From a virus: 43,394 nt of DNA. Positions 776 through 29,425 of this stretch are shown piece by piece. A program made the translations under genes and the position numbers. Every line of letters starts with the position of its first letter. Position 1 is the stretch's first letter. The notes beneath the pieces were generated by a model. That model was not told the DNA's origin. It saw only the letters and a program-made list of their open reading frames with translations, and did not search any database. The stretch spans positions 1 to 43,394 of IMG/VR virus record IMGVR_UViG_3300015263_000944; one strand, 5' to 3'.

Positions 776-825
776 AGTATAGAGGGCATCAAAGTTCGGT
801 GCAATGTCTTAAAAAACAGCGGGTG

Positions 826-1461
826 TTAGCCGGGCCGAGGCCGCTCATCGACGGGCAGCCATCCATCGTACCCATCGTCGGACGGCGGTGGCGGGGAGCA
901 ACTGCCACCAGAGCAGCCGCTCCCTACGCCGTTGACCGCTTCTCCACGCTGGATAGCTTCCCACTGTGCGTCGGAAATGCCGGGCGGCTTCACGTTGCCG
1001 TATCGCCGCAGGTAAGCCGAGCTATCGCCATCCGCACCATAGCCGCAGTTCCAGCAGATGTCGATCTGATGCTGCACTCGTGCGCCACATTGAGGACACT
1101 GGAACTTCCAGTTGGCCGGTGGCTTGAATGCAGTGTTTGGTTCAGCCATCCCCGTCTGTCGAACGATGTCCGAATCCGGGTTGAACGGATACGGCAAACT
1201 GTCGATGTAGGGGTCGCCGCCACGTCTCAGGTATGATTGGAACTGGATGTTCCGACCATAGAAGAGACGCATCAGAACATTGACGATCACCCAGCAGATT
1301 CCACCGAAGAATGCCACGGTGAGCACTGCCGAGATTGCCATTTCGAGAGGCGTCCAGAAACTCGTTTCGGTCGCCCAGTTCCATGCCGATGCGATCACCA
1401 TGTAGATCATAAAGATGATCACACATGCTCGCACGAAGACATTTGACTTAGACGTTCTCAT
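826..1461 (-). CDS. membrane protein with C-terminal zinc-ribbon (CPQCG...CWNCG)
   Basis: Track ORF 826..1530; I prefer internal ATG at 1461 (SD GGGAGGAAG 8 nt upstream, N-terminal hydrophobic segment, 14-nt overlap with upstream stop) over the 1530 start. Confidence 0.5.
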   Translation of the reverse strand: MRTSKSNVFVRACVIIFMIYMVIASAWNWATETSFWTPLEMAISAVLTVAFFGGICWVIVNVLMRLFYGRNIQFQSYLRRGGDPYIDSLPYPFNPDSDIVRQTGMAEPNTAFKPPANWKFQCPQCGARVQHQIDICWNCGYGADGDSSAYLRRYGNVKPPGISDAQWEAIQRGEAVNGVGSGCSGGSCSPPPPSDDGYDGWLPVDERPRPG

Positions 1462-1960
1462 CGGGTTCTTCCTCCCATATTTCCACCGGGGCTTGCCCAT
1501 CAATCTCGCCCAACTTCTCGATGACATCATCGGGTTCGTCGAGGTTCTTGATGGACATGACCGGTCTCTGGATCTCTTTGATCAGGCCCCAGTGAACCAC
1601 AGGCAGCACAAGGCTGTCCCGAGGACCGTTGCCGTACTGGTGAGTGCGGACATTCAAAACACTTGCTTGGTGCATCCAGCGGGCAACCTTGGTCAGTGTG
1701 ATGTCGTCGTCTCCATAAACTTCGAGTTCGATGGGGACGACATATCGCCGACACGGCTTGTCGCCATAGATGATTCGCATGATCTCTTGCATGTCTGCAC
1801 AAGCGGCAGTGGGTGTTGCGTACTTCAAGGCGTCGTTCTTCATCGCCTCTTCAGTAGACTCGACGAATTCCTCGCCAGTCCACACCTTGCCGTCTTCGAG
1901 ATTCTGAATCACATATCGCCGGGCAATCGGAGGCCCGACAGGATTTGCTCGTAGAATCAT
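1448..1960 (-). CDS. hypothetical protein
   Basis: Track ORF, ATG start, acidic C-terminus; no recognisable domain. Confidence 0.5.
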   Translation of the reverse strand: MILRANPVGPPIARRYVIQNLEDGKVWTGEEFVESTEEAMKNDALKYATPTAACADMQEIMRIIYGDKPCRRYVVPIELEVYGDDDITLTKVARWMHQASVLNVRTHQYGNGPRDSLVLPVVHWGLIKEIQRPVMSIKNLDEPDDVIEKLGEIDGQAPVEIWEEEPDENV

Positions 1961-1971
1961 GGTTGGTCCTC

Positions 1972-3093
1972 CTATGCGGCAAGCTCGTGCTCGGTGAGAC
2001 CACTCACCGGGGTTCGCACAACGAACCCCAGCAAGTGATCTACCACCTTGGATGCGTGGCTTGCGGCGTCAAAGATGTACTTGGGATCACTCTCCATGTG
2101 GCCGAGCCACGTCTTAACGTAAGACTGGCTTTGCTCCAACATCTGGTCGCTCATCGGCACGCCGATCTCCATGATAAGGAAACAGGCTCCGATCTCAGCG
2201 ATCAGTTCTTCAAAGGCATAGGGACGTTTTGAGTCCTTGATTGCCTTCTGCACGGACTTCACACGGCGAATGCCCCAATGGATCATCTCATGGAAGCGTG
2301 TTTCGTAGTAATCTGCCATCGAGGCGAAGGTTCGCTTCGGAGGCAGCATGATGGTGTCGGTTTGCTCCCGATAGATTGCTCGGTCGCCCCGATGGATCGT
2401 CTTCGCCCCAGTGTTGGACAGGAAGTCTTCCGCTGGCTTGAAGTCAGGTTCGGTGTTCTGAGTGCAAGGCAACGCTCGATACCGATCCAACTTGGCATCG
2501 ATGCCATTGGCGACATTGCTCGCAATGATCGAGACACGTCGCCGAGTCAGTTCGGCTGTCGCTCGTTTGCCCAAGTATCGCTCAGCGATCTCCAGCATCT
2601 CTGCGCCGCTGGTGCGACGGCTTTTGGTCTTGCGGCCCAACATCCGCTCGATGTTTGGCGATCTGCCATCCATCAATTCATCAACGCTGGGTGCCTTGAC
2701 CTGTGCGATGTTGTAGACGTAGAACTCACGCAGCAATGGCACCTTGATCGGTTCGCCCTTGCTGTTTCGGACCACCTTGCCGTTCTCGACCTTGTTGATG
2801 AAACGGAAGAGAGTGATTGCAGTGGGCAGTTCGTCATTGATGACCCCACCAACATTTCTCAACCACGTCAGATCGCTACCCCAGTGCTTCGACTCGAAGC
2901 CTTGCACAAGAGAGGACCACATCAGCAAGAGCGGGTTGATGCCGCTGTAGCGACGACCCGAGGCAAAGTTACATGGTGCTCCAGTATTGGAGTTGGTGCT
3001 CCATGCTCGTCGCCACGGGGGCAGCCCTTTGGCAAGGGCATCAACCATCAAAGCGGTAATGTTTTCACGGATTTGGTTTGCAGTTTTGTTCAT
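1972..3093 (-). CDS. ardC: ArdC-like antirestriction protein (N-terminal ssDNA-binding ArdC-N with PW..RRAW, C-terminal HExxH metallopeptidase-like motif HEMIHW)
   Basis: Track ORF; SD AAGGAGATA upstream of ATG 3093; HEMIHWG zincin-like motif and ArdC-N-like N-terminus recognised from memory; TAG stop. Confidence 0.65.
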   Translation of the reverse strand: MNKTANQIRENITALMVDALAKGLPPWRRAWSTNSNTGAPCNFASGRRYSGINPLLLMWSSLVQGFESKHWGSDLTWLRNVGGVINDELPTAITLFRFINKVENGKVVRNSKGEPIKVPLLREFYVYNIAQVKAPSVDELMDGRSPNIERMLGRKTKSRRTSGAEMLEIAERYLGKRATAELTRRRVSIIASNVANGIDAKLDRYRALPCTQNTEPDFKPAEDFLSNTGAKTIHRGDRAIYREQTDTIMLPPKRTFASMADYYETRFHEMIHWGIRRVKSVQKAIKDSKRPYAFEELIAEIGACFLIMEIGVPMSDQMLEQSQSYVKTWLGHMESDPKYIFDAASHASKVVDHLLGFVVRTPVSGLTEHELAA

Positions 3094-3112
3094 GGTGTAT
3101 CTCCTTGACCTA

Positions 3113-3125
3113 CAAGCGGGTGTTA
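3113..3125 (-). promoter_or_regulatory. conserved intergenic motif copy (minus strand TAACACCCGCTTG, here TTTAACACCCGCTTGT) 20 nt upstream of ardC-like ATG
   Basis: Exact repeat of motif seen at 10 junctions; directly preceded (minus sense) by hairpin 3128-3168. Confidence 0.5.
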
Positions 3126-3127
3126 AA

Positions 3128-3168
3128 CCAGCAGAGCCGCCCCGGTTTCCCGAGACGGCTCAAGCTGG
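3128..3168 (-). terminator. imperfect stem-loop downstream of RuvB-like gene stop
   Basis: ccagcagagccg ... cggctcaagctgg arms read in sequence; followed on minus strand by TTTAACA. Confidence 0.4.
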
Positions 3169-3175
3169 GGAGCAA

Positions 3176-4420
3176 CTACCGCTTGGACTCGAAGTATTCG
3201 GCTGTGACCTTGCGACCACGATGCTCGATGCCTCGCTTGTCCAGTTCGGCCAACCCTGCCTCGGTGATACAGCATCCTCTGCCGCTGACGGAAACCACAT
3301 AGGGTCCGCCGCCAGTGTAAGCCATTAGGAACGGCAGTTCGTACTTCTGCACCTGCTCGATGCGGCATTGAGCCACGCCGGGCAGTCGGGTTTCAGCGAT
3401 AGGACGCTGACCAAGAGCCGCCAAAATAGCAACCTGCTTCTTGGTGAAACCCCATTCGTCGAGGCCGATGTCCTCAGCCACCGCAGCACAAGCATCCTGC
3501 CATGTATGAGACGGCATGATGTCTCGACGCTGAATGACCTTGGTTGCGAAGTTGAGAGCTTCACGAGGCACACGACGATACTGGGCGACCATTTCGCAGA
3601 CATCTTCAGGCATAGTGCCAGTCAGATCGCCTACGGCATGGTACTCGTCCATCTTCATCTTGACGATTTGAGTGATCTCTTCCACGCCAGCGGCGTGCCA
3701 CTCGATGGCCGTACCCAAACGATTTTCCAGAGCATCGAACAACATGCCACGTTCAGTGGTCGCTGCCACCCAACAAATGTTGCGGCAGTTGACCTGCTGC
3801 TGTTCAGCATTGATGCCGGGGGCTTTGAGGGCCATGATCCCGTCATCACGCTCCATCGCATTCAAGAGTCCACCCTTCATCATCTTGCGAGGAATCAGAT
3901 GGGCTTCATCGAAGAACACGATGCACGGCGGCACGGTGTAATCGGTGTTGTCTTCGGGGTTCTTCCACTCGACAATAGGCTTGAAGGTGATGTCACCCTT
4001 GATCGGGCTGTAAAGGCTGTCCCCACCGAACGTGTGCTCGGCGAAAGCATCCTTGATTTGCTCGAACAAGTCCCATGTATTGGCGATGGATGCAGCTTGC
4101 ACGAAGACGAACGGAATACCGATGGTCTTGGCGAACTGTTTCACCACATAGGTCTTACCCTGACCGCTCCCGGCATAGATGCCGAAGTTGCAGCCACGCA
4201 GCGAACGGTTGAACCGCTTGAGGGCCGTGAAGGCGAAGTCACGCAGAATCCGCATGTTGCCTTCATTGGCGTCACTGACGATCACCTTGTTCAGAGGGCA
4301 GTTCTTGTTGTTGTTCGACAACGCCATCCGAATCTGTTCCTCGGTCGGAGCCGCAGGCAAGCTGGGATACTTCCGGTCGGAACTGGGATCGAAGAAAACC
4401 TTCATTAACTGTTGAGTCAT
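3176..4420 (-). CDS. RuvB-like AAA+ ATPase (Holliday-junction branch-migration helicase-like)
   Basis: Track ORF 3176..4468 starts at TTG directly abutting the motif; I use ATG 4420 (MTQQLMK, SD AAAGGG). Walker A GSGQGKT, Walker B FFDEAH, sensor-1 AATTERGMLFDALENRLG closely resembling RuvB ATTR.G.L...R.G, C-terminal winged-helix-like tail. Confidence 0.6.
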   Translation of the reverse strand: MTQQLMKVFFDPSSDRKYPSLPAAPTEEQIRMALSNNNKNCPLNKVIVSDANEGNMRILRDFAFTALKRFNRSLRGCNFGIYAGSGQGKTYVVKQFAKTIGIPFVFVQAASIANTWDLFEQIKDAFAEHTFGGDSLYSPIKGDITFKPIVEWKNPEDNTDYTVPPCIVFFDEAHLIPRKMMKGGLLNAMERDDGIMALKAPGINAEQQQVNCRNICWVAATTERGMLFDALENRLGTAIEWHAAGVEEITQIVKMKMDEYHAVGDLTGTMPEDVCEMVAQYRRVPREALNFATKVIQRRDIMPSHTWQDACAAVAEDIGLDEWGFTKKQVAILAALGQRPIAETRLPGVAQCRIEQVQKYELPFLMAYTGGGPYVVSVSGRGCCITEAGLAELDKRGIEHRGRKVTAEYFESKR

Positions 4421-4470
4421 GGGAAACGCCCTTTCTTGGAATGCGTCACAACTTTTGTACTGATGCAATC

Positions 4471-4483
4471 CAAGCGGGTGTTA
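4471..4483 (-). promoter_or_regulatory. conserved intergenic motif copy overlapping the TAA stop of the sigma-factor gene
   Basis: caagcgggtgtta; tta at 4481-4483 is the stop codon of ORF 4481..5380. Confidence 0.5.
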
Positions 4484-5380
4484 CGCAGCGTACTGGGCGT
4501 CCCGACCCACCAGATAATCCTTCATCTTGTCGCAAGCCCTTTTGAACGCAAGACATAGGGCGGCTTTGGTGTACAGATTTCCCGTGTTTGGATTGATCCG
4601 GGTCCGAGTCATTTCGGCTCGCAGCGAGGAATCGCCAACCATATAGCCGACGACCAGTTCCCGTTCGAGATCGGTCAGGCCAGCTTCGTCGATGGCGAGT
4701 TGAATTTCCTCTTCATCGATGGGGCCGTCGCCGAAATTGCCACCAGCCGAAGAGACTTCAGCAGCCAGCGGAATCGTCTTGTACATGGCATCGGCCACCT
4801 TATCGGCCTGTCGGTCGGAGATGTCCTCCCCTTCCTTCCGCAGCAATTGGATGGCTTCCTCGAAGCTGCATTGTCGCTGGCTCATGGTCCTCATCACCAT
4901 TCGGCGAATCGTTTTGATCGCACGTCCCACACCAGCACGTTCCTCTTGTTCACGGACGTAGCACGACATGGCACGTCGGAGGGCAGTATGCAAGAGCGTC
5001 GTAAAAGCGGTGCTGCCGTCATAGTGTTGGACGGCATTGACGAGGGCCACGCATCCCTCTTGGATGTAATCGTCTGGCTCGATCTCGGGATTGTCCCGGC
5101 GATTCGACTTCCAGAAAGAGTTCGCCATCCAGCAGACTTGGCGGATGTACGCACTGAGGAATGAACCCTCAAATCTCAGAAGTGCCTCCATCATCCGACG
5201 TGTCTCACCTCGCAGGGAAATCGCTCCCTGAAGAAAGTCGGTGCGAAGCCGCTTGATGTTGGCCTCGCCATACTTGGTGGCCGCAAACTTCTGCAAGCAG
5301 CCCACGACTTCGCAGAGTTCATTGTCTCGGTCGGCCCGCTCTGCATCGGTCCAATGCGTTGCTTTGATGGTGGTCGCCAT
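4481..5380 (-). CDS. sigma-70 family RNA polymerase sigma factor (regions 2 and 4 recognisable)
   Basis: Track ORF, ATG start. Region 2-like YIQEGCVALVNAVQHYDGSTAFTTLLHTALRRAM and region 4 HTH-like DLERELVVGYMVGDSSLRAEM...TKAALCLAFKRA. Confidence 0.6.
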   Translation of the reverse strand: MATTIKATHWTDAERADRDNELCEVVGCLQKFAATKYGEANIKRLRTDFLQGAISLRGETRRMMEALLRFEGSFLSAYIRQVCWMANSFWKSNRRDNPEIEPDDYIQEGCVALVNAVQHYDGSTAFTTLLHTALRRAMSCYVREQEERAGVGRAIKTIRRMVMRTMSQRQCSFEEAIQLLRKEGEDISDRQADKVADAMYKTIPLAAEVSSAGGNFGDGPIDEEEIQLAIDEAGLTDLERELVVGYMVGDSSLRAEMTRTRINPNTGNLYTKAALCLAFKRACDKMKDYLVGRDAQYAA

Positions 5381-5427
5381 GAATCGATCTCCCTGTGCTT
5401 GTGTTGTTGTGTAGGTTTCTGCGGTAC

Positions 5428-5439
5428 AAGCGGGTGTTC
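5428..5439 (-). promoter_or_regulatory. conserved intergenic motif copy upstream of sigma-factor gene; forms 5' arm of a hairpin with 5456-5465
   Basis: acaagcgggtgtt ... cccggcttgt complementary arms seen in sequence. Confidence 0.45.
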
Positions 5440-5471
5440 ATTGTGACAGACACGGCCCGGCTTGTAAAGGT

Positions 5472-5681
5472 TCATTCTCCAATTTGCGTTTCCCCAAAAT
5501 GGATCGTGTCCTGATGGGGGCTGAGAAAGTGCTTGCAAATGTGATCCGTCACAAACTCTATTGGGTCAACACCTTCTGGTGCCAACTTTGCCCAGTCCTT
5601 CACCCGTTGGGTGGTTTCGGAGTTCGTCTTCCGTCTCAGATGGAATCGAACATACCGACGAACTGCTTCTCGGGTGATCAT
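5472..5681 (-). CDS. hypothetical small basic protein (69 aa)
   Basis: Track ORF, ATG 5681 preceded 13 nt upstream by motif copy 5693-5705. Confidence 0.4.
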   Translation of the reverse strand: MITREAVRRYVRFHLRRKTNSETTQRVKDWAKLAPEGVDPIEFVTDHICKHFLSPHQDTIHFGETQIGE

Positions 5682-5692
5682 TGGTCTCTCTC

Positions 5693-5705
5693 CAAGCGGG
5701 TGTTA
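5693..5705 (-). promoter_or_regulatory. conserved intergenic motif copy; adjacent small hairpin agtcca-cttt-tggact 5705-5721 overlaps TAG stop of upstream gene
   Basis: Read directly. Confidence 0.45.
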
Positions 5706-5719
5706 GTCCAACTTTTGGA

Positions 5720-6910
5720 CTAGAAGCATCCCGCACATTGTTCACAGTCTTGGAACTCGAACTGATCGATGATGGGCAGCGAAGGCATTCCATCAATCAA
5801 CCCATTCGTTTGTATGAAATCGGCCATGCGCCCAGAACGATGCTTTGTGCGATGTCCCCACAATCCCTCAATCACTTGCAGTTGTTCTTGGCAGTTGTCT
5901 TCCATGCGAACAATGGCTCGCAGATAGTCACGACCATGTTCGGTTTGGGAATACAACTCCAACTCTTCTGCGGTGGTGGATGGACAGAACCAGCAAGCTG
6001 ATTTGACCGGCACCCCACCTTTCTTGATCCACTTGCGGCCAGTGTGATCGGACCAGCCGGGCAGACCTTCCTTCCGAATCTCTTCAAGGCATCGTTGACG
6101 ATCCCAGCCGAGTTCGATCAAAGGATACCAGTATTGGTACAACTGATCGTCGGTGATCTTGAATGAACGCCGTGAGTCATTCGGGCTTGCATCATAACCA
6201 ATCGCCACGATGCCTTGGTAGTGCTTGTCCCAGCACGTCTGGAATTCGTCAAGGCTCTCCCGGTATTTGTTCTGAGGCCCGATCTTCCACTTGGCACTGC
6301 ACTTTTTGCGTTTGAATGCCCATGAGGGGAGCGTGCGGTTGACGAGGCACTGTTGCTCCAGTGTGTGATACCAACCATTCTTCACTCGATCAGGAGAGGG
6401 CTTGTATCGCACAGTCACAACAGGCGGGAAACCCATCTGCTTGAGGTAGTCTTGAATGACTGGCTCGTAAGCATAGGTCTCTTTCTTCTCCGAGCCGGTG
6501 TCGGCGAAGGTGATGCAGGTCGGGCGGAACTGCGGACGCTTGTTCTTCTGTGAGTTGTAGAGCCGTGCCAGATGAATGAGCAGAGCGGTGCTGTCCACGC
6601 CCATCCCATAGCACACGGAGAAGGGACGGCCCATGCGGATGCGTTCCCACATGTTGTCGAAGGTGACAACCGGTGCAGGCTTGCACTCGGTCTCCATCTC
6701 CATGCTGAGTATGAGGCCACGAACTTCGGTGGCATTACCCAGCTTCATTTTCTTGGCCCAGTCAGATCGAGCTACATCCGCACACAGTTTGTTGAATGCG
6801 GCGAAGGGATCGGCGGCGATCTCTTCATCCATCTTCCATTCGATGTCGCTGATGACCCGCTGGAAGCGGGTGCGGTTGGGTTGTGCTTTCTCTTTGGTTT
6901 TGGTCGGCAT
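5720..6910 (-). CDS. PAPS reductase / DndC-like PP-loop ATP pyrophosphatase family protein with C-terminal Cys cluster
   Basis: Track ORF, ATG start with SD GGAGAA. PP-loop-like YGMGVDSTALLIHL (variant of SGGxDS) and C-terminal CWFCP...CEQCAGCF; TAG stop. Confidence 0.55.
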   Translation of the reverse strand: MPTKTKEKAQPNRTRFQRVISDIEWKMDEEIAADPFAAFNKLCADVARSDWAKKMKLGNATEVRGLILSMEMETECKPAPVVTFDNMWERIRMGRPFSVCYGMGVDSTALLIHLARLYNSQKNKRPQFRPTCITFADTGSEKKETYAYEPVIQDYLKQMGFPPVVTVRYKPSPDRVKNGWYHTLEQQCLVNRTLPSWAFKRKKCSAKWKIGPQNKYRESLDEFQTCWDKHYQGIVAIGYDASPNDSRRSFKITDDQLYQYWYPLIELGWDRQRCLEEIRKEGLPGWSDHTGRKWIKKGGVPVKSACWFCPSTTAEELELYSQTEHGRDYLRAIVRMEDNCQEQLQVIEGLWGHRTKHRSGRMADFIQTNGLIDGMPSLPIIDQFEFQDCEQCAGCF

Positions 6911-6941
6911 GTGGTTCTCCAGTTTTCCTGATGACGAACCA

Positions 6942-6953
6942 CAAGCGGGTGTT
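6942..6953 (-). promoter_or_regulatory. conserved intergenic motif copy sitting in the loop of inverted repeat tgacga(6932-6937)/tcgtca(6956-6961)
   Basis: Read directly; lies between TGA stop 6959 and ATG 6910. Confidence 0.45.
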
Positions 6954-6958
6954 GCTCG

Positions 6959-7177
6959 TCACACGTCGATGAATAACGGATAACTCGTCAGCAGGCCCAT
7001 TGCTTCGTCATACACCGGGCCGCTGTTCTTCAATCCCAGATTCTTTCGCAACCAGTTCATGTCGTGTCGCAGGATCTTGGGAAAGTTGAGTAGCTCCAAG
7101 AGTGATTGAAGCCTGATCCTCGCCGCCCTCTGTTCTGGTGTCGGCTGAGGCATGAGGTAAGCGAAACATTCTGGCAT
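6959..7177 (-). CDS. hypothetical small protein (72 aa)
   Basis: Track ORF 6959..7225; the 7225 start lies inside the motif, so I use ATG 7177 (MPECFAYL) with SD GGAGAA. Confidence 0.4.
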   Translation of the reverse strand: MPECFAYLMPQPTPEQRAARIRLQSLLELLNFPKILRHDMNWLRKNLGLKNSGPVYDEAMGLLTSYPLFIDV

Positions 7178-7202
7178 GGTGATTCTCCTCTCTGTTGATC
7201 CA

Positions 7203-7215
7203 CAAGCGGGTGTTA
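7203..7215 (-). promoter_or_regulatory. conserved intergenic motif copy (TTTAACACCCGCTTGT) immediately after terminator hairpin 7222-7251
   Basis: Read directly. Confidence 0.5.
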
Positions 7216-7221
7216 AACGCA

Positions 7222-7251
7222 ACAAGCCGCCTCATTGCTGAGGCGGCTTGT
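7222..7251 (-). terminator. 13-bp perfect stem-loop (acaagccgcctca-ttgc-tgaggcggcttgt) 30 nt downstream of ParB-like gene stop
   Basis: Perfect complementarity read in sequence; followed on minus strand by TGCGTTTAACA. Confidence 0.55.
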
Positions 7252-7281
7252 GATGCGATTGGGGTTCTGACCGGAAGCGGA

Positions 7282-22835: not shown

Positions 22836-24587
22836 TTACGCAGAACCGAAACACCTTTCGACTGACATATTCTGCGGCTGAATTCCGTGCTTCTCCGCAA
22901 AATCCTGAAGGTCATAGCTGTGATTGATGCCTCGTTGCTGTCGAGAGATTCGCTTCACAGCTTCTCGGAAGTCATCAACGATGACACCGGTTCGAGTCTT
23001 GGCTGCCAGATCACGATGGAGGGCGATCATCTTGGCTTCTTCAGCCAATGCCGCCAGCATTGCACCATTCACTGCATCGCCAAGGGTGAAGTCGTGTTCG
23101 TTGTTGACCCGATACAAAGTGCGTGACTTGGAGAACAAGTCCGACACCGCAAGGGTTATGGTTCCCATCATCTGAGAAGCATCAGCAAACGGCAAAGTCT
23201 TTGTGTGAATTTGCAAAATGTCGATGGCTTCCATCTCGCCGGGGCGATCAACTTTGATGTGCTTCGAGATGCGTCCCGGTCGAGTGATGGCTGGATCGAG
23301 AATGTCTGCCCGGTTGGACATCAACACAACAATTGGATTGGCTTCCGTATCGCTCGGATCAACACCATCCATCTCGCCTAAAAACATAGGTACGATGGTG
23401 TCAGACACATCACTGCTGCGACGAGTTCCACGTTGTGGCATAATGGCATCAGCCTCATCGAAAGCAAGCAGAGCTTTGTATCCATGCTGACGGTAGTGAT
23501 GGCGAGCACGCCGAAACAGTTCTCGGATCTCAGCCTCGGTGTTTCCAACCCATTTGCTGAGGATTTCAGGTGATTTGACGAAGATGTATCCACTTTCAAT
23601 AGCCTCCTTGCCATGTGCGTTTGCGACTGCCCATGCCATAACTCTTGCGAGCAGTGTCTTGCCGCAACCGGGAGGGCCGAACAACAACACACCACGCAGG
23701 GCTTGTACGTCGTAGTATTTGAAAAGGTCTGGCTCAAGGAATGGCAACTCCAGTGCGTCTCGAAGTTGCTGCTTGGCTGTCTCCAAACCACCAACATCAT
23801 CCCATGTGGCAGTGAGTTCAGATGTGACCTTGTAACGATCACTGTTATCTCGTGCCAACTTCTCCATTACGCAGAACATCGTAGGATCACAGGCGACTCG
23901 ATCACCTTCTTCCAATGCAATGCCACGAGGGTTGTTGACCAGATGTTTCTCGCCTTTGAGTTCAACTTCGACGCTGCTCTCTCCAACGAATGCAACAACA
24001 CGACAAATCGGGCCAGCATGAAGGTCATAGCCACGAGACACAATGGCTTTCGTGTCAGGCTTCACTTTGACTGGCTCGCCCACTTGTAGGTCGAGATCAC
24101 CGAGACCTTGAACTTCCCACGGCTTGCCGTCGATGCTCACCACCGCAAAGGTGCCATCGGTTTTTTCAGACAGGCGCACTTGTGCTGCGGCCTTGCCCTC
24201 GACACCAATCGGGAATCGCACTTCTTCTTCATTGTGCAACTTCACGAGCACTGTCCCATCGTCATCAACGATGGGAGTCTCGTTCAAGCCACTGATGATT
24301 CGCCCGCCTTGCTGGTAATACGGCGAATCAGGATCAACGACAACAACTTCATCGTTGGTCTTGAAGCAGCGAGGGTCCACTGAATTGTGGACTTTGAGAA
24401 GCGTGCCGAAGCACAGAGGCTCGCCTAGCAGGCGTTTCAGCTTTTCGTGATGCTGAATGAGTTTGGCTGTGAGATCACGATTGATGTCACGCAACTCAGT
24501 AATGTCATCATGGAGCCGACGTGTCTGTCTGCCGACTCGACGCTGAACTTCGGCCTCGATGAATTGTTCTACGTTCTGATCTGTCAT
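22836..24587 (-). CDS. AAA+ ATPase with N-terminal coiled coil and OB-like region (proteasome-associated ARC/PAN-like architecture)
   Basis: Track ORF, ATG. Walker A LLFGPPGCGKTLLARV, Walker B LLAFDEADAI. Confidence 0.6.
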   Translation of the reverse strand: MTDQNVEQFIEAEVQRRVGRQTRRLHDDITELRDINRDLTAKLIQHHEKLKRLLGEPLCFGTLLKVHNSVDPRCFKTNDEVVVVDPDSPYYQQGGRIISGLNETPIVDDDGTVLVKLHNEEEVRFPIGVEGKAAAQVRLSEKTDGTFAVVSIDGKPWEVQGLGDLDLQVGEPVKVKPDTKAIVSRGYDLHAGPICRVVAFVGESSVEVELKGEKHLVNNPRGIALEEGDRVACDPTMFCVMEKLARDNSDRYKVTSELTATWDDVGGLETAKQQLRDALELPFLEPDLFKYYDVQALRGVLLFGPPGCGKTLLARVMAWAVANAHGKEAIESGYIFVKSPEILSKWVGNTEAEIRELFRRARHHYRQHGYKALLAFDEADAIMPQRGTRRSSDVSDTIVPMFLGEMDGVDPSDTEANPIVVLMSNRADILDPAITRPGRISKHIKVDRPGEMEAIDILQIHTKTLPFADASQMMGTITLAVSDLFSKSRTLYRVNNEHDFTLGDAVNGAMLAALAEEAKMIALHRDLAAKTRTGVIVDDFREAVKRISRQQRGINHSYDLQDFAEKHGIQPQNMSVERCFGSA

Positions 24588-24628
24588 CCTTGACGTGCTC
24601 CCCGGCTTCGATCCCTGAAGCCGTTTTC

Positions 24629-24910
24629 TTAAAACTCATCGGGAAGTTGTTCTTTAAGTTCTGCCAACCTCTTATTAGCAGATTCTATGGCTTCCAGACG
24701 TTCCGGCGTCTCATCTTCTGTGTAACAATTCACATACCATCTGGAATTGCTACGCCAGAACTTGCCGCCGAATCCCAGCATACCACAAAACCGGTATTCG
24801 GTGCAATGTCCTTCTGTCTCTGTAAATACGAAATTCTCCAGCCAGAAGTCGGTTGCGCCGCACTCCTGCTGGAGAATCTCATATATGCGTTTGGCTGTGT
24901 CTTCATTCAT
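24629..24910 (-). CDS. hypothetical protein
   Basis: Track ORF, ATG. Confidence 0.45.
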   Translation of the reverse strand: MNEDTAKRIYEILQQECGATDFWLENFVFTETEGHCTEYRFCGMLGFGGKFWRSNSRWYVNCYTEDETPERLEAIESANKRLAELKEQLPDEF

Positions 24911-24919
24911 GCCAACATC

Positions 24920-25705
24920 TTAGCTGGCGTTGCGAATCTCCACAACCCGAATCTGCTGGCCGTTGCAATCGAGATCCTTCGTTTCGATCACAAAATCCTC
25001 GGCAATGTCGAGGCCAGCGGTTCTGAGCGTGCGGCTGTAGAGCCGCATATCGCCGTTTCGCTCGATTTGCTGGGTCTGACCGGAAGGCCCACCCAAGGTA
25101 TCGACGACTTCATCGTACTTCTCTTCCTGCGTCAACAGGATGCGGTTGTTGGCCGTGTCCATGATGACCTGTACGGGGTCGTTGTGGACGAGACCGAGTT
25201 CCTTGACGAACTCCGTGCGGACCATGAGGCGATTGCGGTAGTCCGTGCTGAACGTGCCGTCCGTGTTTTGACCACCGCTGTCATTGCCGTTGTTGCTCGG
25301 CGCAGCCGGGGCGGCAGCAGCAGCGACGGCTGCGACGGGTTGCCCGCTGTGACTGGGCTGGGGACGACTCTGCGGCGTGGCACTTCCGCCCCGAGCCTGA
25401 TACTGGTTCGGATCGGCGGTTTCGGGATGATAGACGAAGGCCCAGCCGCCACCCGGCATGTTCATCTGCGTCTGTTGCCACTTCATGTCGTTGCCGTTGG
25501 GATCGGTGTGACCCCAATCGATGGCGTCCCGGAGGCACTGGATTTCGTGGATGCCGCCACGCACGTCCTTGTGACGCATCTGGACGTTCTCACGCTGGCG
25601 GGTCTCGATGGTCACATCGTAGCCGGTGAACATCCGGCCTTCATCGAGAAACTGCTTGACGGTAGCTTCGAGTTGTTGTTCGGTTGTCGGGTCGAGTTGG
25701 CACAT
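24920..25705 (-). CDS. hypothetical protein with AbrB/MazE-like C-terminal region, tentative
   Basis: Track ORF 24920..25759 (GTG) trimmed to ATG 25705 (MCQLDPT) behind leader CCCGATCAAGGAGACC. Confidence 0.4.
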   Translation of the reverse strand: MCQLDPTTEQQLEATVKQFLDEGRMFTGYDVTIETRQRENVQMRHKDVRGGIHEIQCLRDAIDWGHTDPNGNDMKWQQTQMNMPGGGWAFVYHPETADPNQYQARGGSATPQSRPQPSHSGQPVAAVAAAAAPAAPSNNGNDSGGQNTDGTFSTDYRNRLMVRTEFVKELGLVHNDPVQVIMDTANNRILLTQEEKYDEVVDTLGGPSGQTQQIERNGDMRLYSRTLRTAGLDIAEDFVIETKDLDCNGQQIRVVEIRNAS

Positions 25706-25888
25706 TGTCGTTGGTCTCCTTGATCGGGTTTCTTTGGTTATCGTGAAAACACACGCCACACTTGAATTGTATGGCAGAAAACTTACATGGTTGAGCCTTA
25801 GAAGTATTTCTTCTTCAGCACAATTCCCACCAGAGTCACAGAACTCAAGCAGAAGATTCCTGCTAGGAACTGCGACAAAGAAGAGGAT

Positions 25889-26557
25889 TCATTTGCCAGA
25901 AGTACCAAGGTCTGCATTGGGGGATTCCTCCGAGAAGGGTCGCTGACGAGAGTTGAGCCTTTCGTTCATCTCTGCGTCATAGGTTACGTCTCGTTGCATC
26001 CAACCGATGGGTACGCCCATCGGGAAAGGCTTCGCAAACACGAACAGATGAAACTGGTTGGCTGTATCGTGACAACGAGATTCCGCAGGATGCAACTGGA
26101 ACGCCTCGTTCTCTGGCCCCACCAGTTCGCTTTTGATTTGCTGAAAGTGCCGCCAATCAATGATCGCACGTTGGTCGATCCGCTTGATCGACAACCAGTG
26201 CATCTCTTGGCCCATCTGATTCACCCACCAATCGCCCTCCTTGCAACCTCGGATGTTGCGGATGACATAGACTTCATAGATGTTGTTTCGGTGGCCTGTC
26301 ACCGAATCGAAGTCGTAGGTGGTCTGCCAGTAGTTCAGCTTGAAGTCTGGCAGAGGGTATTCCTCGAACGGCGTCATCTTCGCCGCTGGTCCTTCAGGCA
26401 CATGGACCGGAACCTCAACGGGTCGTTCGACAACCACTACCGCAGCATTGTCAGGAAGCTGATCCAGAACATGCTGAGGAAGAGGCGGCACGTTGCCGCT
26501 ACTCATCGAGAGCGGCAGAGCGTGCTTGCGTCTCCTGTTGTTCTTCTTGTTTCCCAT
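25889..26557 (-). CDS. hypothetical protein
   Basis: Track ORF, ATG behind leader CCCGATCAAGGAGAACTC. Confidence 0.5.
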   Translation of the reverse strand: MGNKKNNRRRKHALPLSMSSGNVPPLPQHVLDQLPDNAAVVVVERPVEVPVHVPEGPAAKMTPFEEYPLPDFKLNYWQTTYDFDSVTGHRNNIYEVYVIRNIRGCKEGDWWVNQMGQEMHWLSIKRIDQRAIIDWRHFQQIKSELVGPENEAFQLHPAESRCHDTANQFHLFVFAKPFPMGVPIGWMQRDVTYDAEMNERLNSRQRPFSEESPNADLGTSGK

Positions 26558-26629
26558 GAGTTCTCCTTGATCGGGTGTACAAGGTCATTGTATGGCACAA
26601 ATCAAGGAGAGTTCACTCCAACTTTTGGA

Positions 26630-28294
26630 CTAGAAGCTGATCTCGGCGAGATACTTCATCTCGATTCGACCACGCTTGTAGATGATCCATTCGTTGTTCT
26701 GGAGTCCGCCGTAGACGCCCCACGATGCGGTGTGACCAGCCTTGCCGAACACGCAGTGGTGCGGATTGGGCGGCGAGGTGAAACCGTGAGCATCCTTGGC
26801 AACGTGAGGGTTGCCGCAGATCACATCGAAGGCGAACATGAAGGCGTGACGACCAACCACTTCACCGCCACCACCATAGTAGGAGCGACGACCGGGATTG
26901 CACGACGAGCAATACCCTGCGGACTTTTTCCAATCGTCCGCAAAATATGACCCCGGCCCGAACATGGCACCGGTGATGATGACGCCGGTAAGTTGGTTCG
27001 GGAATCGCAGGTTCTCTCGTACAATGCCCGGCACGTTGACTGAACGTGTGCCGTGGAACATCAGGGCCGTGTTGGTATCGTAGTACAACTTGCGTTCCTG
27101 TGCCGTCAGATCGGGACGCTCACGCCACATCTGGTGCAATGGACGCTCGTTGTTCCACTTCTTCGGCATCTCGCCCAATGTGGCTTCCTGAGCAGCACGC
27201 ATGATCTTGCTGTCGCCGTCACGCTCGATTTCCCACATGTTGTGGACCTTGAGCTTGCCGACGTGACCATGCTTGTTGCGAGTGGAGTTGATCCACCAAT
27301 CTTCCAACCACTTGCCTTTCTCGCTCTTGGGGTCGAGATAAGCGACCTTGGCGGGAATACCGGCCATCACGTCGGTCTCGTCTTCCTCGATGTTCATGTC
27401 AACGGCTTGCAATGCCGTCTCGAACGCATCGATGTCGAGCCGCCATGTGGAGATGTTGTCTTGGCTCAGAATCCAGTCCGCTTCGGCGATACCCTGCGGC
27501 TTCGCCTTTGGAATGATGCCGTACAGGTGATAGGTGAGTTGCTTCAACTCGGTGTCGCTGACCTGAGCGGCCACCTCATTGCCGACGATCTTGATCCGAG
27601 CCATCGCATCATCCAGCACATCACGCCCTTCATCGAGGGCAGCTTGGGCTGGCAACGTGACCTTGCCGCTTTTGCCGCCAGACATGACGGCGTTGGTGTA
27701 GCTCACAGCACCACCGATTAGATCGGTGAACAACTTGCGAGTCTGCGGATCGAGATTGGACTTCTTCTTGGTCGTCTTCTTCTTCGAGGTAGGAGCGGCA
27801 GCCGGGGCAGCATTTGCGCCCTTGGCATCTTCGTTGGCGAGATTTTCGCAGCACGGCAAACCGACCAGACGTGTCGCCGACAAACGGACGACATACAAGT
27901 CTTTGCCCGGCTTGGCGACGAAGCGATCCTTCGAGCCGACCTTCTGCCATTGCCCACGACTGGTGTTCTTCGACTTGAACTGTTTCTCGCAACAGTCCTG
28001 TGCGTCTTGTTTCGACGAACACTCATGGAACTGGAATGAGGGCTTGTTGGGGCGACCGTCAGGCCGTGTGCGACCCCACTCGAAGTAGGCATAGAATTTG
28101 TTGTTGATGGTCGATTGGACGACGGCCAAGTGGTAATACTTGTTCGAGTCCACATCTTCCTGCTTGAAGCAGCCGAGATCGCAGAGGCAGGCATCGCCCC
28201 ACTCAGTATCTCGGCTGACGACCGGGCCGAGACCTTTGAAGTCACTGACACTGTGGCCCGCTGGCAGCGTTTGTTTTGCAAGTTTGGTCGCCAT
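26630..28294 (-). CDS. poly(ADP-ribose) polymerase-like protein: WGR domain + PARP catalytic domain with H-Y-E triad
   Basis: Track ORF, ATG with SD GGAGGAT. WGR motif YFEWGRTRPDG; catalytic motifs LMFHGTRS, GAMFGPGSYFADDWKKSAGYC and LQNNEWIIYKRGRIEMKYLAEI match the PARP1 sequences I recall. Confidence 0.65.
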   Translation of the reverse strand: MATKLAKQTLPAGHSVSDFKGLGPVVSRDTEWGDACLCDLGCFKQEDVDSNKYYHLAVVQSTINNKFYAYFEWGRTRPDGRPNKPSFQFHECSSKQDAQDCCEKQFKSKNTSRGQWQKVGSKDRFVAKPGKDLYVVRLSATRLVGLPCCENLANEDAKGANAAPAAAPTSKKKTTKKKSNLDPQTRKLFTDLIGGAVSYTNAVMSGGKSGKVTLPAQAALDEGRDVLDDAMARIKIVGNEVAAQVSDTELKQLTYHLYGIIPKAKPQGIAEADWILSQDNISTWRLDIDAFETALQAVDMNIEEDETDVMAGIPAKVAYLDPKSEKGKWLEDWWINSTRNKHGHVGKLKVHNMWEIERDGDSKIMRAAQEATLGEMPKKWNNERPLHQMWRERPDLTAQERKLYYDTNTALMFHGTRSVNVPGIVRENLRFPNQLTGVIITGAMFGPGSYFADDWKKSAGYCSSCNPGRRSYYGGGGEVVGRHAFMFAFDVICGNPHVAKDAHGFTSPPNPHHCVFGKAGHTASWGVYGGLQNNEWIIYKRGRIEMKYLAEISF

Positions 28295-28331
28295 TGAAAA
28301 TCCTCCGGGTTTCGTTACTTGGTTATCGCCA

Positions 28332-28344
28332 CAAGCGGGTGTTA
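28332..28344 (-). promoter_or_regulatory. conserved intergenic motif copy 3 nt after TAA stop of gene 28348..28653 and 37 nt upstream of PARP-like ATG
   Basis: acaagcgggtgttag read directly; the only copy outside the 0.8-10.2 kb block. Confidence 0.5.
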
Positions 28345-28347
28345 GCT

Positions 28348-28653
28348 TTAGTCACCGGTTGCGCCGAACATCCATTCCAAAAATTGGACCAGACCTTCCA
28401 TGGCCTGCTGACGCTCTGGCGTCGTGTATCGATAGGTGAGCCGATAAATCGGCAAGCCTTCTGCACTGGTGTCGTGTCGCACGAGAAACCAATCGTTGCC
28501 ATTGTCGAGTTGCCATGAGTCACTACCCATGCTCGTTTTCTGGTATGGGATCGTGTCTCCCTCACGCTCTCTCGGCACTTGGCCGATCACCATCGCCACT
28601 CGTTGAGCGACGAATGCTTCAGGTGTCTTCTTGGCTGTGCGGAAGTAGATCAT
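28348..28653 (-). CDS. hypothetical protein
   Basis: Track ORF, ATG; ATGA overlap with the upstream stop. Confidence 0.45.
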   Translation of the reverse strand: MIYFRTAKKTPEAFVAQRVAMVIGQVPREREGDTIPYQKTSMGSDSWQLDNGNDWFLVRHDTSAEGLPIYRLTYRYTTPERQQAMEGLVQFLEWMFGATGD

Positions 28654-29396: not shown

Positions 29397-29425
29397 ATTG
29401 TATGGCACGAAAACTTGGCTGTAAA
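29397..29425 (-). promoter_or_regulatory. sigma70-like promoter TTTACA-N17-TACAAT with about 160-nt leader
   Basis: Plus strand attgta 29397-29402 and tgtaaa 29420-29425. Confidence 0.45.

Follow-up and report, generated by a model that had tools for sequence, protein, structure and literature searches.

A conserved, strand-specific motif at gene junctions of uncultivated giant phages, a candidate phage promoter block

Phage-specific promoters at gene junctions are a classic finding. At the gp55 late promoter of phage T4, TATAAATA, transcription starts at a fixed distance of 6-8 bp downstream of the element. This work concerns a 13-nucleotide (nt) motif, a candidate promoter block, that recurs at gene junctions in a 43,394-nt stretch of viral DNA (IMG/VR record IMGVR_UViG_3300015263_000944, positions 1 to 43,394; the whole stretch is called the window below), which comes from a metagenomic contig about 239 kb long. 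Several published systems invite comparison. The sigma factor gp36 of phage phiEco32 uses a single element, tAATGTAtA, with starts 6-8 bp downstream, and the missing -35 element has been ascribed to the missing region 4 of the protein (PMC8948821). Promoters of the AR9 virion polymerase have a 13-nt block, AAATATATATTAT, followed by six unconserved bases and a G at +1, and tolerate almost no deviation; the late promoters of the same phage read AACA-(6N)-T-R, where N is any base and R a purine (PMC5312081). The Syn5 promoter, ATTGGGCACCCGTAA-G+1, contains the string CACCCG (PMC3950665).

When up to two mismatches are allowed, the pattern TAACACCCGCTTGT matches the window at 10 places, every one of them on the minus (coding) strand; dinucleotide-preserving shuffles predict 0.10. 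The minus-strand consensus is T-R-ACACCCGCTTG, or T-R-A-C-A-C-C-C-G-C-T-T-G, and the opposite strand of the window carries zero copies. A weight matrix derived from these copies gives them 21-31 bits and no other site in the window more than 12, a bimodal distribution without weaker sites. All ten copies lie between minus-strand genes, at 11-129 nt from the next start codon; a preliminary description of this DNA had likewise reported ten coding-strand copies at gene junctions and a varying distance to the following gene. Its additional "degenerate copy" at 18231-18246 mismatches three otherwise invariant positions, scores below 8 bits and is not a member, and a copy that it listed at 8823-8835 is in fact at 8833-8845, ten positions away. 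The copies are as follows.

28332-28344, minus strand: motif copy TAACACCCGCTTG, 37 nt 5' of the ATG (28294) of a gene with poly(ADP-ribose) polymerase (PARP) and WGR domains
10209-10221, minus strand: motif copy whose TAA is the stop of the upstream gene (10824-10219); 47 nt to the ATG of an AAA_5 ATPase gene; predicted start A 10202
8833-8845, minus strand: motif copy right after a terminator hairpin; a ParB-like gene begins 129 nt on, with a sigma70-like promoter (8765-8793) between
7203-7215, minus strand: motif copy 2-3 nt after the end of a hairpin; ATG (7177) 25 nt on; predicted start A 7196
6942-6954, minus strand: motif copy CAACACCCGCTTG, 31 nt from the ATG (6910) of a PAPS-reductase-like gene
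5693-5705, minus strand: motif copy 11 nt from the ATG (5681) of a 69-aa gene
5427-5439, minus strand: motif copy GAACACCCGCTTG, abutting the -10 element of a sigma70-like promoter; 46 nt to the ATG of a sigma-factor gene
4471-4483, minus strand: motif copy whose TAA is the stop of the sigma gene; an AAA ATPase gene begins 50 nt on
3113-3125, minus strand: motif copy 2-3 nt after the end of a hairpin; 19 nt to the ATG of an ArdC-like gene; predicted start A 3106, the first base of AAGGAG
816-828, minus strand: degenerate motif copy TAACACCCGCTGT whose TAA is the stop of the upstream gene; 78 nt to an RNA-ligase gene that runs off the window

Nine of the ten copies fall within 816-10221, and the tenth, at 28332-28344, is isolated. 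Deviations are few: the first base is not T in the copies at 5439 and 6954 (G or C), and the 816-828 copy ends in CTGT in place of CTTG. The genes behind the motif encode ArdC-like, PAPS-reductase-like, ParB-like and PARP/WGR proteins, two AAA ATPases, a sigma-70-family factor and an RNA ligase.

The information profile shows one sharply bounded block, with weak preferences at the following two positions, and the sequences flanking the motif are dissimilar between copies. A block so sharply bounded, with unrelated flanks, is not part of a longer repeat. The preliminary description had named a longer dispersed repeat, also found inside genes, as one finding that would speak against its reading; there is no such longer repeat, and gene interiors are essentially free of the motif. 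A 9-nt fragment, CACCCGCTT, lies within a gene at 6864-6872, where the rest of the motif is missing.

Conservation in relatives is extensive. Homologs of the window's sigma factor, 45-54% identical to it, led to three syntenic contigs that carry the same core at gene junctions on the coding strand, in 8, 8 and 2 exact copies. Homologs of the ParB-like protein are far more widespread (64 proteins, on contigs of up to 685 kb) and led to further loci. In the related loci L001, L002, L003 and L005, with sigma factors 42-54% identical, an identical core stands at equivalent junctions despite differing flanks and a G+C content of 40-55%; L005, at 40% G+C, has 11 exact copies. More distant relatives show lineage-specific variants that have RACACC in common, such as TTAGCGGACACCAGCCAT. 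The variant in L006 is TNAG-ACACCCGCTTG, that in L008 (an NCBI assembly of 275 kb) is a looser AG-ACACCC-N5, and L010 and L011 have YTTAGCGGACACCAGCCAT (8 copies) and TTAGCGGACACCCTMCATG (7 copies). Across nine sequences totalling 147 kb, exact 11-nt cores number 115 on the coding strand and 0 on the opposite strand. RACACC stays constant while the 5' and 3' parts change by lineage; the target of a co-evolving protein would be expected to behave in this way. Among GenBank phages, neither nucleotide nor protein searches returned a close relative, the only matches being distant ones to PAPS reductases; scans of IMG/VR with the sigma and ParB-like proteins or their alignments gave no matches, a metagenome scan gave one weak, irrelevant match, and a genome scan none.

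Downstream of the block, five weakly conserved positions are followed by a return of conservation in the form of a pyrimidine-purine (Y-R) step at +6/+7. Among the 47 copies from loci of the sigma cluster, whose leaders are unrelated, +6 is a pyrimidine in 40 (p=2e-7) and +7 a purine in 43 (p=1e-8). The step also follows the variant blocks, in 7/8 copies of L010 and 5/7 of L011. A pyrimidine at -1 and purine at +1, located 6-7 bases past a -10-type element, is the standard start signature of multisubunit RNA polymerases. Starts predicted on this basis in the window lie at 10202, 8826, 7196, 6935, 5686, 5420, 4464 and 3106. Distances from motif to ATG are mostly 20-50 nt, a normal length for a leader (5' untranslated region).

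Hairpins resembling intrinsic terminators stand directly 5' of three copies in the window, as the preliminary description had noted, and their folding energies confirm them as real and strong; the third had been placed at 8840-8872.

3128-3168, minus strand: intrinsic-terminator-like hairpin directly 5' of the motif, -35.3 kcal/mol, z -4.1
7222-7251, minus strand: intrinsic-terminator-like hairpin directly 5' of the motif, -31.4 kcal/mol, z -5.6
8850-8882, minus strand: intrinsic-terminator-like hairpin directly 5' of the motif, -28.6 kcal/mol, z -2.2

Hairpins of this kind (-25 to -35 kcal/mol, z down to -5.6), ending 0-3 nt before the motif, occur in the window (3 copies), L001, L002 and L005. 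Their U-tracts are good in several cases (UUUUU in L001, UUGUUUUGUUUU in L002) and weak in several others, such as UUUAAC. After hairpin and motif, only 19 nt (the ArdC-like gene, motif at 3125) or 25 nt (the gene at 7177, motif at 7215) are left to the ATG. With a strong terminator just upstream and so little room before the start codon, the motif, the sole conserved candidate element, would have to supply initiation at these genes.

Three window copies, at 10221, 4483 and 828, supply the TAA stop of the preceding gene, an overlap that had been seen before. The first three bases, TAA or TGA, serve as the actual upstream stop in 17/39 copies of the sigma cluster and in 34/50 copies of an array described below. 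These bases are conserved also in copies that do not serve as a stop; for this reason the overlap seems to reflect the packing of the genome around a fixed promoter block, not a role in translation. The stop built into the motif is always TAA or TGA and never TAG.

An exact-match scan of IMG/VR revealed, among the matches listed, two contigs in which the motif stands before nearly every gene of long arrays of orphan genes of about 100 aa.

L032 and L038, IMG/VR 3300015263_000653, contig positions 2355-20593: array with 50 copies in 18 kb
L114, IMG/VR 3300022562_000947, at the contig end: array with 25 copies in 6.5 kb

The arrays hold up to one copy per about 300 bp. Proteins encoded in one array have almost no homologs in the other and none in the sigma cluster; the junctions of both arrays are identical. 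In the arrays +6 is a pyrimidine in 53/68 copies and +7 a purine in 68/68, and no -35-like second block appears upstream of the motif, even in 49 aligned array copies. Some array junctions are tandems of motif, hairpin and motif. A stem pairing ACACC with a downstream GGTGT was seen only in L114 and is not general. Each array gene is preceded by the motif, then a CA-rich leader (CAACACAACAC), then GGAGATCGC. A scan with the single variant TAACACCCGCTTGG found no further exact copies elsewhere on the two array contigs, which are 81-90 kb long; this suggests that the arrays are confined to those contig regions.

A promoter role is favoured by the strand and junction specificity of the motif, its lineage-wise conservation and change, its position after terminators, the Y-R step, and the presence of a sigma gene in the regulon. 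From these features of the sequence we infer that the motif is probably the recognition block of a phage-specific promoter class and that it acts on DNA. The preliminary description had offered two roles. Its phage-specific promoter is the one favoured here, and its terminator-coupled processing site is weaker, given that a minority of copies have a hairpin and that the Y-R step lies at a fixed distance. In the proposed layout, T-R-ACACCCGCTTG would occupy about -19 to -7, the six weakly conserved bases after it would form the discriminator, and transcripts would start at the conserved purine 7 nt past the last G, with a pyrimidine before it and without a -35 element. Such a layout would be that of the one-element promoters of multisubunit RNA polymerases.

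The candidate reader of the motif is encoded within the cluster, as it is in every lineage.

4481-5380, minus strand: gene for a sigma-70-family factor of 299 aa, with sigma2, sigma3-like, linker and sigma4-like parts

The open reading frame (ORF) at 4481-5380 matches Pfam Sigma70_r2 (3.1e-7) and NCBIfam TIGR02937 (1.1e-8, under the curated cut-off); an ortholog, P0002, passes that cut-off. A profile made from four orthologs matches FliA and RpoD chains in PDB. The AlphaFold model (pLDDT 71.5) has an N-terminal helical part, sigma2, a sigma3-like segment, a disordered linker and a sigma4-like domain, and Foldseek aligns it to full-length sigma-A chains; the C-terminal 75 residues align and fold like region 4. 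Orthologs are found in L001, L002, L003, L005, L006, L008, L010 and L011, and adjoin the same AAA ATPase gene in every lineage examined. In the window, L001, L002, L003, L008 and L010, a motif copy lies over the sigma stop codon or immediately behind it.

A second class of promoter, resembling those of sigma70, dominates the motif-free part of the window and also stands before the sigma and ParB-like genes.

29397-29425, minus strand: sigma70-like promoter
22210-22238, minus strand: sigma70-like promoter
10892-10920, minus strand: sigma70-like promoter
8765-8793, minus strand: sigma70-like promoter, before the ParB-like gene
5440-5468, minus strand: sigma70-like promoter TTTACA-N17-CACAAT, before the sigma gene
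26587-26594, minus strand: CATACAAT also present
25766-25773, minus strand: CATACAAT also present

The family has the form TTTACA-N17-(C/T)ACAAT, is often extended to gcTTTACAgccaa..gtgcCATACAAT, and is frequently followed by cccGATCAAGGAG. The -35 region of the sigma-gene promoter, gaaccTTTACAa, is kept in L001, L002 and L005, and L003 has a variant. This family could be an early class read by the host enzyme or, alternatively, the true target of the phage sigma factor. A near-palindrome, CCAAAAnTTGTA / TCCAAAAGTTGGA, has 16 matches where 3.1 are expected; the sites adjoin promoters and hairpins, and the element resembles an operator for a dimeric regulator. Besides others in the window, it is found in L006, L008, L011, L032 and L038, and at these window positions.

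8882-8893: near-palindrome site
10922-10933: near-palindrome site
5707-5718: near-palindrome site
26617-26628: near-palindrome site
28377-28388: near-palindrome site

The most likely reader is the host core polymerase carrying the phage sigma factor of 4481-5380, a proposal whose chances we put at close to even, or slightly below. If so, host sigma70 holoenzyme would first fire the TTTACA-N17-(C/T)ACAAT promoters, one of which stands before the sigma gene in the window and in L001, L002 and L005. The new sigma factor would then switch on dozens of motif promoters, including that of its own gene; the targets would be the genes for the sigma factor, AAA ATPases, ParB-like, PAPS-reductase-like and ArdC-like proteins, PARP and RNA ligase and, in relatives, the arrays of small orphan genes. 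A bolder form of the proposal, which we offer as a tentative and rather doubtful possibility, is that a sigma factor with domains 2, 3 and 4 reads a single, G+C-rich, near-invariant block of 13-22 nt that ends at -7, without a -35 element; that in giant phages the regulon is as dense as one promoter per 300 bp; and that the block doubles as upstream stop codon and as an exchange junction for orphan genes.

Several observations weigh against the promoter reading or against the sigma factor as its reader. The sigma factor keeps a sigma4-like domain, which normally accompanies a -35 element. Its residues at the positions that usually read -10 and -35 elements vary among orthologs that have an identical motif, and no co-variation between sigma residues and motif variants was found that would support the pairing. 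The block is G+C-rich, which is unusual next to a segment to be melted, and one copy per about 300 bp, as in the arrays, is extreme for promoters. Some array copies stand directly before a hairpin and a second copy and would fire into the hairpin. At some genes the Shine-Dalgarno sequence overlaps the 3' end of the block and would be absent from a transcript that starts 7 nt downstream.

Compared with the described systems, the motif shares with the promoters of phiEco32 gp36 and T4 gp55 a single block, no -35 element and a fixed-distance start (here predicted), together with a phage sigma-70-family protein whose own gene lies behind a host-type promoter. It differs from them in that the block is 13-15 nt long (18-22 in L010 and L011) and G+C-rich rather than A+T-rich, and in a far higher density of copies. 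Both gp36 and gp55 lack region 4, whereas the present sigma factor has a sigma4-like domain, and its pairing with the motif is putative. The early promoters of AR9 and other phiKZ-type phages resemble the motif in having a long invariant block, six unconserved bases, a purine start (here predicted) and intolerance of deviation, and AR9 shares the giant-phage setting and the presence of genes that have a second type of promoter besides this one. However, AR9 blocks are A+T-rich, and phiKZ-type phages encode split beta/beta' polymerases and no sigma-70-family factor; genes for split beta/beta'-like polymerases were not seen in the sequence examined, a minor part of the genome. As in promoters of the T7 family and Syn5, there is a single contiguous block (15-23 bp in those phages) per phage lineage. 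Those promoters, unlike the motif, are conserved through +1 and A+T-rich at -4 to -1, whereas here the block ends in GCTTG and is followed by a 5-nt gap and then Y-R; if the motif is aligned with Syn5 through the shared CACCCG, its last G would be the start. In T4-type phages, PeSL cassettes likewise have a hairpin and promoter bordering small variable genes, and identical junctions around unrelated orphan genes. Their promoters are of the host sigma70 early type, in contrast to the motif, which has no elements like TTGACA or TATAAT and is preceded by hairpins at a minority of copies.

The strongest alternative accepts the promoter and changes the enzyme: the motif would be read by a phage-encoded RNA polymerase, either an injected or early multisubunit enzyme of the phiKZ/AR9 type or a single-subunit enzyme like those of T7 and Syn5, encoded outside the window. 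Invariance over 13-22 nt without degenerate copies is typical of phage polymerases, the AR9 virion polymerase being described by its authors as equally strict, and block-(6N)-purine fits AR9 early promoters. The motif-driven genes resemble early, host-takeover or anti-defence genes, and the arrays lie near contig ends. The AR9 late form AACA-N6-T-R(+1) fits as well, for copies with AACA though not those with GACA, and CACCCG stands in the same register as in the Syn5 promoter ATTGGGCACCCGTAA-G(+1), with one L008 copy sharing CACCCGTAAG. These last two likenesses imply different enzymes and different start sites; they are therefore probably due to chance, and at most one can be meaningful. An unconserved 5-nt gap before Y-R disfavours an enzyme of the T7 type, whose promoters stay conserved through +1, and the conserved sigma gene inside the regulon would be redundant beside a polymerase of the phage's own. 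No RNA-polymerase gene, single-subunit enzymes included, was found among the ORFs scanned in the window (43 kb) or among the genes tabulated for the related loci (precomputed Pfam hits), a search in which arrays L032, L038 and L114 were not scanned against family libraries and most of the genome of about 239 kb was not covered. On balance we regard a phage-encoded polymerase as unlikely, though a serious competitor.

The remaining explanations give the motif another role. As an RNA element, the motif would be the target of a sequence-specific endoribonuclease that cuts polycistronic transcripts into single-gene messages, with the hairpins as 3' stabilisers. Such a role would suit the arrays, in which 50 and 25 copies stand one to a gene, and equally the hairpins that end 0-3 nt before the motif, several with weak U-tracts (UUUAAC), Shine-Dalgarno sequences that overlap the motif's 3' end at some copies, and the fusion of 34/50 array copies to the upstream stop codon. 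Yet no nuclease came to light as a candidate, the motif has no structure of its own and no match in Rfam, hairpins precede a minority of copies, and several of these hairpins have good U-tracts (UUUUU in L001). A Y-R step exactly 6-7 nt on has no rationale in cleavage and is a standard start-site signature, and at 5427-5439 the adjoining sigma70-like promoter would start transcripts within the motif. We know of no phage precedent for a linear 13-nt RNase site that is invariant across lineages, and consider processing improbable. A motif serving mainly as a recombination linker, offering identical short junctions for cassette swaps between phages with or without a role in expression, would account for the motif-bounded small orphan genes of the arrays, for identical junctions despite near-zero protein homology, and for the motif-hairpin-motif tandems, which look like inserted modules; the PeSL promoter/terminator cassettes of T4-type phages do this (PMC4122927). 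It leaves unexplained the co-orientation with genes, the fixed Y-R step, the 20-50 nt to start codons and the lineage variants, no recombinase is associated with the motif, and in PeSL the role in recombination is secondary to promoter function. As the main function a linker is thus very improbable, although as a side effect it is plausible. Least credible of all is a role in ending or pausing transcription, with the motif as a sequence-specific signal or as the U-tract of intrinsic terminators. A hairpin abuts three window copies and several in relatives, and many copies overlap the upstream stop codon. An intrinsic terminator would show a hairpin and U-tract at every copy, whereas a hairpin precedes 3/10 window copies and the core is C/G-rich, not U-rich, and unstructured; this role is excluded for most copies. 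Stopping before nearly every gene would moreover leave the ArdC-like gene, for example, 19 nt away and promoterless. The earlier suggestion that TTTAACA acts as a U-tract holds for the few copies that abut a terminator and not as a general property.

Other known elements were considered and rejected. A sigma54 promoter would have GG/GC invariants, which the motif lacks, and a spacing that differs by one. For an ECF-type promoter the distance from AAC to GTC is about 14-15 nt rather than 16-17, and the spacer is conserved. A T4 MotA box would have a downstream -10 element, which is lacking, and an integron attC site would have a GTTRRRY core, an imperfect palindrome and an integrase, none of which is present. 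The motif is not palindromic, as a ParB/KorB operator would be; DNA uptake or Chi-like sequences are not confined to junctions; a termination-reinitiation signal does not fit the more than half of sigma-cluster copies that lie away from a stop codon; and an anti-Shine-Dalgarno mimic would have CCUCC, which is missing.

A literature search for the motif string returned only PCR primers. As far as the searched literature shows, the motif family, its lineage variants, the G+C-rich 13-22-nt block, its density and the association with a three-domain sigma factor are undescribed. The motif overturns no current idea. It provides a regulatory map for a clade of uncultivated giant phages (contigs of 100-685 kb), with genes of a temporal class, probable starts and a likely switch gene. 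If the link to the sigma factor is true, the pair would be a compact, highly specific combination of sigma factor and promoter with lineage-specific variants. It would lend itself to work on DNA reading by sigma factors that do without a -35 element and would supply orthogonal expression parts; recognition of a G+C-rich block, with no -35 element, by a three-domain sigma factor would have no described counterpart. The identical 13-mers that bound the array genes point to a way in which giant phages could trade small host-takeover genes.

Some features of the clusters deserve separate record. Behind the isolated copy at 28332-28344, positions 26630-28294 (minus strand) encode a protein of 554 aa that combines a WGR domain with the catalytic domain of a poly(ADP-ribose) polymerase. 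The motif-driven cluster of relatives includes CsrA homologs (L002 14569-14757, L010 20320-20643, L011 19984-20241) and AcrVA2-like proteins (L001 8391-9356, L005 14354-15355, L008 18381-19337), which suggests a host-takeover or anti-defence module. A tRNA gene at 15921-15992 (minus strand) of the window has the anticodon CUA, that of an amber suppressor; it is labelled tRNA-Pyl by ARAGORN, scores 67.7 bits against the Rfam tRNA model, and hints at read-through or recoding of TAG in part of the phage genes. In L008, a gene-free stretch of 528 nt (9474-10000) before the ParB-like gene starts with the variant ACACCCGTAAG, ends with a sigma70-like promoter and may hold a structured RNA. The AAA_5 ATPase ortholog of L006 (7625-9835) has grown to 736 aa, with weak matches to Hint and LAGLIDADG homing-endonuclease families, and probably contains an intein.

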